A stretch of 64,000 bases of DNA. Source: Escherichia coli. Lineage in GTDB: Bacteria; Pseudomonadota; Gammaproteobacteria; Enterobacterales; Enterobacteriaceae. Position 1 is the first letter of the stretch. Each line of letters starts with the position of its first letter. This document shows positions 42,122 through 44,673 of this stretch, one piece after another. The notes beneath the pieces were generated by a model. The model ran no database searches. It saw nothing but the letters and a program-made list of their open reading frames with translations, and was not told where the DNA came from. A program made the position numbers and the translations under genes. The DNA is taken from NCBI RefSeq assembly GCF_016026235.1, contig NZ_CP065613.1; one strand, written 5' to 3'.

Positions 42122-43121
42122 TTACAGGCTATCGATTAACAATTTGCCTTTGCGGAACATCATCAGACGCAGGAACACCACCATCAGCGCAGTTATGACT
42201 GCCCCCAGCGCGATCCCCGCCATATAGACGCCCAGGTTAGTGACCAGCGGCCATGCCCAGATAGCGGATTCCGGGAACCATTGCACTGCGCCCAGCCAGA
42301 CAGCGGCGGTTGAGCCGACAATCGCGCCGACCATATACGACGGAATGGCGGTGATGGGGCTTTCCAGCGCAAACGGAATCGCACCCTCACTAATCCCCAT
42401 AAAGGCAAGGAACATCGCGGTCTTACCCTGCGGATAAAGCTGAGCATTGAACAGGCGTTTGCCGGTTAAACGACGGTCGATAATGGTCGCCAGACCCAGA
42501 CCAATCGGCGGAATAACGATAGCGATAGAACGTGCGGTGACCGGTAATACGTGGTCAGTGGTAAAGCTGAAGGCAACAAAACCTGCGGCTTTGTTGATCG
42601 GGCCACCAAGGTCGATTGCTGTCGCCGCGGCGATCCCCATTGCGTACATCAGCGCGCCCTTCTCACCTGCAGCAGTCAGTACGGTACGGATACCGCCGTT
42701 GATCCAGCCGCCAAACGGGGTGATGACGTAGTACATCGCCAGCATGACAAAAATGGCGGAAAGAATCGGTAGCAAAAATGTGGTTTTGAACGCTAACAGG
42801 AAATCCGGTAACTGGATTTTCTGGTTCATCCATTTCACAAGGTAACCGGCAACGATAGAAATAATCAGCGCACCAATGAAGGTGGACGGCACCGGCGAAG
42901 AGGTCGCCCATTGCATAGTGCTGGGATCGAAGTTCAGCAGTTGCGTCGGCTGGGTAGACATCAAGCCGCCGATAAAACCAGCCGGGAACGCCAGTTTGCC
43001 ACCGATAGAGTTCGCCACAAAAGCAGCAAACATCGGAATGGCAAAACCAAACAACACGCCGCCGAAGGACTGCGACAGCCAGGCAAATTTCAGTAAGGAG
43101 AGGTCGAAACCGGAGAATTTC
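42122..43121 (-). pseudogene. fryC: fryC C-terminal portion (PTS EIIC, fructose-like), separated from its 5' end by an IS186-like insertion
   Basis: Frame reads (K)FSGFDLSLLKFAWLSQSFGGVLFGFAIPMFAAFVANSIGGKLAFPAGFIG... to the stop at 42122; no start codon on this side of the IS. Confidence 0.85.
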
Positions 43122-44417
43122 CCTGAGGGATCCCCAGAAAATTTAGTAAACCATTATCATATTGGTATACCGTTGCTGTAGAACTTTCAGCCCTGCGTCA
43201 AGTGACAGTGTGTTTAGTATGAGTGGAGAATGTCGAATCACATTCTCCGCCAGTTTTAATAACGAGATGACTCGCCTGTGCTTCACTGTATTTGCCTGAT
43301 ATTTATGATGTATCCCTTTGTTTTCCAGGCTGAAACCGCTTAACCACATAATGATACTGGCTAATGTTGCGATCAGACTCAATACCGTGACCCGCCCGGA
43401 TGAATGACTGGCACCAAACCGTAGTCCAAATCCCCAGCGAGGATTTTTTTCATCCCTGAAATTTTGCTCAATTTGCATTCTACGGCTGTATAATTTCATT
43501 ACCTGTTTTGGCGAGAACTCAGTACTGTTTGTGAAAATAAACCATGGTGATTTCCCGGCAGTACGAGCTTTAGCCGTCACCGATGGTCTGGTTGCTCTTT
43601 CCTTCGAGCGTTTAAATCAACGACCTTTAGGCTTACTTTTATAAAGATAAAAATGCCCTTCATGTTGTGCATTTTTATCTCGACCCAGCAGGCCTTCACC
43701 TAAATAAATTGCTGTCGTTGATGCTTTTGTGCCTGAGTCCGACACCTTTTCCCAGCCATTACCAACATTGTAATAATGATTGCCCAGTACCCGGCAAATA
43801 TAGGTCCAGCCACGGGAGCGGAGCTGTTGGAACCATCGCCCCTGAAAACCGGCATCTGTAATAACAATGACATCAGTCCCGGGGGAAAAGCACTCAGCAA
43901 GCGATTCCAGAAAACGCTCATGTACATCTGCATTCGCTGTCTGTGATGATGGAACGACACAACTCATCAACGGTAAAGAACGCCCGTCACATGCCAGGCT
44001 TGCCCGCAAAAGCTGAAAACGAGAGGCATGATAAGCACTCCAGTCAATGAGTATCACAACACGAGACATTCCCCGCGTAATCTTTTGGGTAATTCGCTGA
44101 AAAATGGTGGAAACCTCATTTTGCAAATGTCGATTCCCCAACAGTCGATCCACCCGCTTTATTTTGTTTTTAACTGATGCCGTACCGGTTAAATGACGCC
44201 CGATACTGGTAAGTGTGAGGGAAGCGCCATTTATTACAGCATTAGTTGCGTCAATCAGTGATTTTTGACGGTAAAGATGCAAAGGGGCCAGTATGTTGTT
44301 AAGGAAATTTTGGCATAATGAACGTGCAGGCATAGTGGTGATCTCCTTGAAATTGTTAGCACAATCAATTAGATCACATCTCACTATGCCTGTCTTGTTT
44401 TCTGGGGATTCCTCAGG
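43122..44417 (-). mobile_element. IS186-like insertion sequence (IS4 family), about 1.3 kb, copy 1, inside fryC; about 11-bp target duplication GGAAATTCTCC
   Basis: Ends CCTGAGG(A/G)ATCCCCAGAAAA inverted; same element as at 51053-52348; flanking fryC codons KFS are duplicated on both sides. Confidence 0.85.
43143..44333 (-). CDS. IS186-like transposase; frame contains an in-frame TGA (revcomp of 43617-43619) between N-terminal ~238 codons and C-terminal 145 codons
   Basis: MPARSLCQNFLNNILAPLHLYRQKS...IKRVDRLLGNRHL...LYKSKPKGR*...YSRRMQIEQNFRDEK (Y-x2-R-x3-E-x6-K); reminds me of the IS10 transposase. Confidence 0.75.
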
Positions 44418-44673
44418 AGAATTTCCCGCTATTAAGAGCATCCATGATGCCGATCTCAGCAGGAATTTTAAGCCAGCTATAAGCAATCAGCTGGCTGAAA
44501 GCGAGGATCACACCGCCCATAATTAAGGTTGGCACCATGCGTGAAATCCCTGACATCACATGCTGCGGGAGTTCACCCCAGAAGCTGCTTTTAGAGGCCT
44601 GCGGATTCTTAACTGCCGCTGCCGCACCGGATGCGCCAGGCACAACGGTTGCACTGCGTTTTTTAATGGCCAT
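44418..44673 (-). pseudogene. fryC: fryC N-terminal portion (first ~85 codons), truncated at the IS186-like junction
   Basis: MAIKKRSATVVPGASGAAAAVKNPQASKSSFWGELPQHVMSGISRMVPTLIMGGVILAFSQLIAYSWLKIPAEIGIMDALNSGKFS then stop supplied by IS sequence. Confidence 0.85.

Follow-up and report, generated by a model that had tools for sequence, protein, structure and literature searches.

The IS4 family of insertion sequences is defined by a single-ORF DDE transposase with a Y-(2)-R-(3)-E-(6)-K motif (PMC2266710). Its IS10 subgroup has 5'-CT ends and a size of 1200 to 1350 bp, and a 9-bp target duplication is listed for it (PMC2266710, Table 1). IS186, with a transposase from another branch of the family, makes 10-bp duplications at GGGG-N6-CCCC hairpins in Escherichia coli K-12. 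The hot-spot consensus of IS10 is NGCTNAGCN. The closest named relative of the element described here is ISSfl1 of Shigella flexneri. The ISSfl1 literature, in the parts open to searching and judged by title and abstract, consisted of genome surveys, with no apparent study of target choice.

In a 64,000-nucleotide stretch of an E. coli genome (the window), fryC was found to be interrupted at codons 83 to 86 by a 1294-bp insertion sequence. We put at about 93% the probability that ISEc60, which belongs to the IS10 clade, moved into fryC within this interval, at a site guided by sequence, and thereby broke FryC. In an IS-rich E. coli lineage such an insertion is ordinary and of a type that has been catalogued before.

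Structure of the interrupted fryC locus

The split of fryC, a PTS EIIC gene, by an IS4-family element had been noticed in a preliminary description of this DNA. That observation was confirmed; everything described was present and only small corrections were required. A minus-strand ORF (44413-44673) encodes FryC residues 1 to 86 (MAIKK...ALNSGKFS); the end of the element supplies the third base of codon 86 (44416) and a TGA stop (44413-44415). This fragment, which had been placed at 44418-44673, comprises 86 codons rather than 85. The remainder of the gene, which had been located at 42122-43121, begins at 43122, ends with the stop at 42122 and is annotated elsewhere as a 323-aa PTS EIIC protein. 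In silico excision of 1304 bp (the element and one copy of the repeat) rejoined the fragments in a single frame, as had been claimed; this frame of 1248 nt encodes a 415-aa product identical to FryC WP_000985336.1 at 415 of 415 residues. Of 5426 complete E. coli genomes, 5406 contain the repaired site over at least 80% of its length, and the listed matches cross the site in one piece. With FryC split into an 86-aa piece and a C-terminal piece lacking a natural start, the permease is predicted to be inactivated.

Table 1. Features of the fryC locus and of the second ISEc60 copy in the window
Feature	Position	Strand	Remark
ISEc60 insertion sequence, 1294 bp	43123..44416	- (transposase orientation)	99.9% identity to annotated copies
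Transposase-proximal terminal inverted repeat CTGAGGAATCCCCAGAAAA	44398..44416	-	without GATC site
Transposase-distal terminal inverted repeat CTGAGGGATCCCCAGAAAA	43123..43141	+	with GATC site
Target-site duplication, left copy, GAGAATTTCC	43113..43122	.	
Target-site duplication, right copy, GAGAATTTCC	44417..44426	.	
fryC 5' fragment, codons 1-86	44417..44673	-	called as 86-aa gene in source assembly
fryC 3' fragment, codons about 83-415 and stop	42122..43122	-	Pfam PF02378
Transposase gene	43143..44333	-	396 codons in intact copies; broken by in-frame TGA at codon 239
Nonsense codon R239* (TGA)	43617..43619	-	product loses E289 and YREK motif
Second ISEc60 copy	51054..52347	+	100% identical, inverted, in nupC terminator hairpin
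10-bp duplication of second copy, GGGATAATTC	51044-51053 and 52348-52357		
fryB, 108 aa	44695..45021	-	intact; upstream of fryC
fryA, 831 aa	37465-39960	-	intact reading frame; downstream of insertion
ypdE	39985-41022	-	intact reading frame; downstream of insertion
ypdF	41022-42107	-	intact reading frame; downstream of insertion

The 19-bp terminal inverted repeats agree at 18 of 19 positions; the 20-mers originally given for them are present but include one flanking base on each side. The longest exact repeat flanking the element is the 12-bp GGAGAATTTCCC (43112-43123 and 44416-44427, offset 1304), of which 10 bp are duplicated target and two belong to the termini of the element. The duplication appears to be 11 to 12 bp long because the end bases of the element happen to continue the target sequence. 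The repeat GGAAATTCTCC, which had been taken as a duplication of about 11 bp, does stand on both sides, and the true length is 10 bp. GGAGAATTTCCC occurs exactly once at the empty fryC site in K-12 and in ECONIH5. These empty sites and the differing flanks at 21 sites ruled out the repeat as part of the element, and its earlier reading as target DNA held. Every full ISEc60 copy examined measured 1294 bp between the same ends (21 independent sites). From sequence the boundary is ambiguous, and a 1296-bp element with an 8-bp duplication would fit equally well because every target has a G before and a C after the duplication; the boundary of 1294 plus 10 bp was adopted because IS10-clade ends begin with CT (Table 1 of PMC2266710). 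By homology with IS10 and IS50, the DDE transposase would cut ISEc60 out of a donor site and attach both of its 3' ends to phosphates of the target with a 10-bp stagger, and gap repair would then produce the duplication.

The reading frames of fryA and fryB, which had been described as intact, are uninterrupted. With fryC, the downstream genes ypdF, ypdE and fryA form a tightly packed gene string with order and spacing as in K-12, and expression of these downstream genes is probably reduced by polarity. The earlier remark that fryA stays intact missed this point. A weak outward-facing promoter-like match (43182-43153) could partly relieve the polarity; the promoter and terminator scan gave weak consensus matches only and was not relied on. 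The fry system, a fructose-like PTS, is "putative" in the K-12 annotation, and a literature search for fryA, fryB and fryC gave no relevant hits. Since the lost gene belongs to a PTS of only putative role, little consequence for physiology is expected.

Identity of the element

Complete E. coli genomes and plasmids carry matching copies annotated "IS4-like element ISEc60 family transposase." These copies have the same length and identical ends, and 1293 of 1294 bases are identical to the window element; the one substitution (AGA to TGA at codon 239) truncates the window transposase. On this comparison the element is ISEc60. It belongs to the IS4 family and, within it, to the IS10 clade, as a relative of IS10 and not of IS186. 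The name is the NCBI automated (PGAP) naming for WP_001111632.1, and identity was judged against annotated copies. Copies at 1293/1294 were located in E. coli, on chromosomes, pINV invasion plasmids and other plasmids, and on pINV plasmids of Shigella dysenteriae; E. albertii plasmids carry copies that are 98 to 99% identical. The insertion-sequence call is not due to chance, because the window holds a second copy with 100% identity and 278 E. coli records contain matches. A literature search found ISEc60 in two papers, in both cases only in tables of mobile elements.

The transposase exhibited 36% identity to that of IS10 over 93% of its length (E = 5e-63) and 52% identity to that of ISSfl1. 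It scored 360 bits with NCBIfam model NF033591 (cutoff, 152), which IS10/IS10A also passes. Pfam DDE_Tnp_1 spans residues 98 to 302, and alignment of intact ISEc60 copies with IS10A showed conservation of D97, D160 and E289 and of Y282, R285, E289 and K296. The DDE triad and the family motif are therefore present in intact copies, and the window ORF is broken by R239*. A sequence search of solved structures with the transposase gave no match at E <= 0.01. The family's duplication of about one helical turn (~10 bp) was also observed, its length being 10 bp in 18 cases and 11 bp in the 3 others, and the CTGAGG... ends and 1294-bp length agree with the ends and size of the IS10 subgroup. The subgroup's 9-bp duplication was not seen; if the ends are taken to start with CT, every site has a duplication of 10 or 11 bp, and no choice of boundary yields 9 bp with symmetric ends.

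The preliminary description had labelled the element IS186-like. IS4-family membership, a size of about 1.3 kb and a 10- to 11-bp duplication at G-tract/C-tract targets, as in the three K-12 IS186 copies, are consistent with that label, and IS186C of K-12 occupies the nupC hairpin in which the second ISEc60 copy of the window sits. However, when ends, length and transposase were compared with all three K-12 copies (IS186A, B and C), each was found to differ and IS186 identity was rejected. IS186 has CATAAGCGCTAACTTAAGGGTTG ends and a length of 1339 bp, whereas the window element has CTGAGG... ends and measures 1294 bp; the CATAAGCGCTAACTTAAGGGTTG repeats and ~1.34-kb size of IS186/IS421 are absent from the element, and IS186 ends begin CATAAGCGCTAAC.... 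A BLASTP comparison with InsL yielded only a 22-residue YREK patch (E = 0.008). InsL passes NF033592 only, whereas ISEc60 passes NF033591 only, like IS10, and the transposase is not of the InsL type. The G-tract/C-tract targets and ~10-bp duplications are a behavioural resemblance only. An assignment to IS186 or to a close relative within the IS186/IS421 family is thus very improbable, and the identity of the element was corrected to ISEc60.

The second copy and the origin of the insertion

The two identical, inverted ISEc60 copies bracket fryC'-fryB-glk-yfeO-ypeC-mntH-nupC. Such an arrangement could denote a composite transposon, with the break in fryC marking the edge of a 6.6-kb block that had been transposed or rearranged, and FDAARGOS_943 demonstrates that the block can be rearranged. 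However, the gene order and orientation of the block are as in K-12, and a separate matching 10-bp duplication surrounds each copy. On the outer flanks, GAGAATTTCC and GGGATAATTC differ from each other, and the single duplication on the outer flanks of a Tn10-like composite transposon was not found. In FDAARGOS_943 the segment between the two copies is inverted and has swapped half-duplications, indicative of later inversion by recombination; these are absent from the window. A composite origin of the block was rejected on synteny and the separate duplications and is regarded as highly unlikely. Inversion can take place between the two inverted copies, as it did in FDAARGOS_943, and this is relevant to the comparison of assemblies.

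Both window copies carry R239*, the single difference from intact ISEc60 transposase copies. With the catalytic glutamate lost, neither is autonomous. The copy in fryC has perfect ends and a product without the third catalytic residue, and it would be mobile only if another copy supplied transposase. The R239* variant was detected only in the source assembly, where the same change is present in five ISEc60 copies, and it could be a consensus error of that assembly. This odd shared codon raises a question of consensus quality, and the genome contains many identical ISEc60 copies, so that a copy might have been misplaced in a repeat-rich assembly. An artefactual split is nevertheless scarcely credible: both junctions and the same 10-bp duplication were detected in two other independent assemblies (FDAARGOS_943 and GCA_031665325.1), and the window is identical to the source contig.

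Among the 5426 complete E. coli genomes, an ISEc60 junction in fryC was detected only in FDAARGOS_943. As its junctions are the same, the event is shared and not independent. The insertion arose in a recent common ancestor of the three assemblies. It adds one more IS-made pseudogene to an IS-rich lineage close to FDAARGOS_943, and the element responsible is frequent on the invasion plasmids of E. coli and S. dysenteriae.

Target choice and comparison with known systems

The 18 independent sites with a 10-bp duplication gave the target consensus GGGAWWTCCC, preceded by g and followed by c. Three more sites have 11 bp, and all 21 duplication sites have G...C ends. When a leave-out matrix was built from the other sites, the fryC site ranked 1 of 61,392 positions and the nupC hairpin ranked 2, 4 and 5. 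ISEc60 would thus prefer near-palindromes made up of a G-tract, an AT-rich core and a C-tract, with the fryC site as the best match in the 61-kb region. The insertion site in fryC was largely set by sequence, and a simple matrix allows prediction of ISEc60 insertion sites.

This ranking bears on whether the insertion became fixed because loss of the fry PTS was advantageous, as a pathoadaptive pseudogene, and not through neutral target preference and drift. The insertion was kept in three related assemblies, and the lineage is IS-rich, with further gene disruptions in the window (cscK::IS4 and an IS1-linked xapAB deletion). However, fryC is the top-scoring target in 61 kb, and selection is therefore not needed to explain the site. 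The shared junctions in FDAARGOS_943 point to one event without recurrence, and no phenotype is known for the fry genes. An adaptive origin was considered improbable, and neutral insertion at a preferred target is favoured.

ISSfl1 has terminal repeats that are nearly identical to those of ISEc60 (CTGAGG(A/G)ATCCCCA), with GATC at the same end. It differs in a 9-bp duplication, CCTGAAGGG, which lies outside the ISEc60 target pattern, as seen at the single site of the one copy inspected. IS10/IS10A shares ends of the form CTGA(G/A)G(A/G)ATCCCC, with GATC only at the transposase-distal end, and the DDE and YREK residues. The duplication is 10 bp (sometimes 11) in ISEc60 and 9 bp in IS10, and the GGGAWWTCCC consensus differs from the IS10 hot spot given above.

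In target choice the resemblance is to IS186, a comparison based directly on the three K-12 IS186 sites. At two of these three (nupC-pdeA and dnaJ-hokC) ISEc60 has inserted as well, with an offset of one base. With the ISEc60 matrix, all three K-12 IS186 empty sites were in the top 4 of 61,374 positions. In one plasmid, ISEc60 and an IS186 end abut at one hot spot. No description of ISEc60 sharing the IS186 target rule was found in the searchable literature, although the length of the duplication may already be given in ISfinder. The evidence leaves evenly balanced the proposal that ISEc60, an IS10-clade element, follows the established target rule of its distant relative IS186, a near-palindrome that is often the stem of a Rho-independent terminator, with a stagger of 10 to 11 bp, that the two contest shared hot spots on the chromosome (the terminators at nupC and dnaJ-hokC and perhaps the lon promoter), and that the sites are predictable from sequence alone. 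That the same hairpins draw IS186 may interest students of target choice by DDE transposases. IS186 differs from ISEc60 in its unrelated ends (CATAAGCG...), its length of 1339 bp end to end and a transposase with no significant full-length similarity.

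Interruption of fryC by an inserted element

The permease gene of the putative fructose-like PTS, fryC, was found in two fragments separated by an inserted element, as the preliminary description had reported. The open reading frame of the 5' fragment ends at a TGA stop codon that is part of the element, and the ends of the element, CTGAGGGATCCCCAGAAAA and CTGAGGAATCCCCAGAAAA, matched at 18 of 19 positions. The sole long direct repeat at the junctions was GGAGAATTTCCC (43112-43123 and 44416-44427; offset, 1304 bp). In silico removal of 1304 bp produced one 1248-nt frame, and the 415-aa product matched the uninterrupted ECONIH5 FryC at 415/415 residues. 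Of 5426 complete E. coli genomes, 5406 contained the repaired site over ≥80% of its length, and the matches listed spanned it as one piece. As GGAGAATTTCCC occurred once only at the fryC site in both K-12 and ECONIH5, the repeat was attributed to target DNA. Thus, the frame was continuous and the repeat did not belong to the element, the two points on which the preliminary description had made its reading depend.

Coordinates of features in the window
Feature	Position	Strand or orientation	Description
fryC 5' fragment ORF	44413-44673	minus	FryC residues 1-86 (MAIKK...ALNSGKFS)
fryC remainder	43122 down to stop 42122	minus	
Element between the fryC fragments	43123-44416		1294 bp
Second ISEc60 copy	51054-52347 (with duplications, 51044-52357)	inverted relative to the fryC copy	100% identical to the fryC copy
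IS4 element	10118-11543 (with duplications, 10106-11555)		1426 bp; 18-bp terminal repeats; inside the fructokinase gene cscK
csc sucrose-utilisation locus	7447-14441		cscB, cscK, cscA, cscR; adjoins argW
IS1	59144-59911		768 bp; located where K-12 has xapA and most of xapB

The frames of fryA (831 aa), ypdE, ypdF and fryB (108 aa) were intact, in agreement with the earlier statement that fryA and fryB had been spared. Since fryB, fryC, ypdF, ypdE and fryA are arranged head to tail on a single strand, overlapping or no more than ~24 nt apart, the insertion is probably polar on ypdF, ypdE and fryA; a weak outward promoter-like match (43182-43153) was the sole hint against polarity. The same fryC junctions were present in FDAARGOS_943 and GCA_031665325.1, which excludes an assembly artefact and makes the insertion older than the split of the window lineage from these two genomes.

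Elsewhere in the window, the IS4 element in cscK was flanked by a 12-bp duplication, ATACTTTGGCTG, and the csc locus stood where K-12 has the CPS-53 prophage, dsdC and most of dsdX. The loss of xapA and of most of xapB looks like a deletion beside IS1; xapB was still present in FDAARGOS_943.

Identity of the element and its transposase gene

With the element as query, megablast of complete E. coli genomes and of plasmids detected copies that were 99.9% identical and annotated as 'IS4-like element ISEc60 family transposase' (WP_001111632.1; 396 aa). E. coli chromosomes carried such copies, as did E. coli and Shigella dysenteriae plasmids, invasion plasmids (pINV) among them, and copies on Escherichia albertii plasmids were 98-99% identical. 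Near-full copies were confined to 14 of the 5426 E. coli genomes, with as many as 39 places in a single genome. The transposase was 52% identical to that of ISSfl1 and 36% identical to that of IS10/IS10A across 93% of its length (E = 5e-63). Alignment with IS10A indicated conservation of D97, D160 and E289 and of Y282, R285, E289 and K296, and Pfam DDE_Tnp_1 was placed on residues 98-302. Like the IS10A and ISSfl1 transposases, that of ISEc60 passed NCBIfam NF033591 (360 bits; cutoff, 152), and its transposase-proximal end, CTGA(G/A)GAATCCCC, and distal end, CTGA(G/A)GGATCCCC with GATC, had the IS10-clade pattern also seen in IS10A and ISSfl1. In contrast, IS186 InsL passed NF033592 only and shared with the ISEc60 transposase a 22-residue YREK patch and nothing else by BLASTP, while K-12 IS186 copies had CATAAGCGCTAACTTAAGGGTTG ends and a length of 1339 bp. 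The transposase, the NCBIfam models, the ends and the length led us to reject the 'IS186-like' label as a statement of descent; the insertion event had been read correctly but the family had not, and on sequence criteria the element is assigned to ISEc60, in the IS10 clade.

A single base separated the fryC copy from intact copies: position 43619 was A rather than T, which converts codon 239 (43617-43619) from AGA to TGA (R239*). The truncated 238-aa transposase retains D97 and D160 and, as E289 and the YREK motif are missing, would be unable to catalyse transposition; the ends of this copy were intact. R239* was present in five ISEc60 copies of assembly GCA_900449985.1, both window copies and three others, on contigs UGFA01000002.1 and UGFA01000005.1 (segments L022-L024); segments L025 and L026 matched the window at 100%. 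The variant was absent from every other ISEc60 copy examined and from the complete E. coli genomes and plasmids of the searched collections, and the orthologous fryC and nupC copies were intact in FDAARGOS_943 and GCA_031665325.1. Spread of R239* by gene conversion among ISEc60 copies is possible, as is a consensus error of assembly GCA_900449985.1.

Target duplication and target choice

ISEc60 copies were gathered from plasmids and chromosomes (segments L002, L005-L020, L022-L023 and L029-L038 and the two window copies). All were 1294 bp from CTGAGG to CCTCAG, with a target duplication of 10 bp at 18 independent sites and 11 bp at three. In fryC the duplication was GAGAATTTCC (43113-43122 and 44417-44426). 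A repeat of ~11 bp had been proposed previously; the repeat exists, but its length is 10 bp, as that 11-mer and the 12-bp maximal repeat take in terminal bases of the element, which by chance extend the target. Every ISEc60 duplication started with G and finished with C, making the element boundary formally ambiguous, and an 8-bp duplication around an element of 1296 bp would fit equally well. However, IS10-clade ends start with CT, and hence the boundary giving 1294 bp and a 10-bp duplication was preferred. Under either boundary, the duplication differs in length from the 9 bp listed for the IS10 subgroup with its CT-starting ends (Table 1 of PMC2266710).

The ISEc60 sites yielded the consensus g|GGGAWWTCCC|c and were often A-rich upstream and T-rich downstream, which makes many of them terminator-like hairpin stems. 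A position matrix was derived from 16 ISEc60 sites outside the window, and the repaired window was scored. Among 61,392 positions, the fryC site took rank 1, and three registers of the nupC terminator took ranks 2, 4 and 5. This ranking indicates that target preference explains the fryC site and that selection need not be invoked. The plasmid hairpin GGCGGGGA(T/A)4CCCCGCC was a repeated ISEc60 target (L005, L006, L008, L010, L012, L014, L015, L018, L019); the insertions had either orientation and duplications of 10 or 11 bp, and some stood in tandem with a further ISEc60 or beside an IS186 end. The closest named relative is ISSfl1 (L028, from a plasmid of S. flexneri), with terminal repeats near-identical to those of ISEc60; the one copy inspected had a 9-bp duplication, CCTGAAGGG, outside the ISEc60 target pattern.

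Second ISEc60 copy and hot spots common with IS186

The nupC terminator, GCCGGGGATAATTCCCCGG, was the target of the second copy, which was flanked by a 10-bp duplication of its own, GGGATAATTC. The two inverted copies, which together span 43123-52347, bracket a 6.6-kb block of fryC', fryB, glk, yfeO, ypeC, mntH and nupC. In FDAARGOS_943 (L003; corresponding span, 8148-17372) this block was inverted and the half-duplications were swapped, the signature of recombination between the two copies. The window retained the K-12 gene order and a separate duplication at each copy, which excludes a composite-transposon origin.

IS186C of K-12 occupies the same nupC hairpin, with a duplication, GGATAATTCC, shifted one base from that of ISEc60. 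In GCA_031665325.1 (L038), ISEc60 was present between dnaJ and hokC (duplication, GGGATCACTC), and IS186A of K-12 (L039, 15250-17000 of K-12) lies in the same hairpin (duplication, GGATCACTCC). ISEc60 abutted an IS186 end at one hot spot on plasmid L008. A matrix derived solely from other ISEc60 sites gave all three K-12 IS186 empty targets scores among the best four of 61,374 window positions. The common hairpins and matrix scores argue that the IS186 label captured a likeness of target behaviour and not family membership. No description of ISEc60 sharing the IS186 target rule or hot spots was found in the searchable literature. Overall, the fryC insertion is an ordinary event involving an already catalogued element, and the modest interest lies in what appears from these comparisons to be an IS10-clade element with the target rule and hot spots of IS186.
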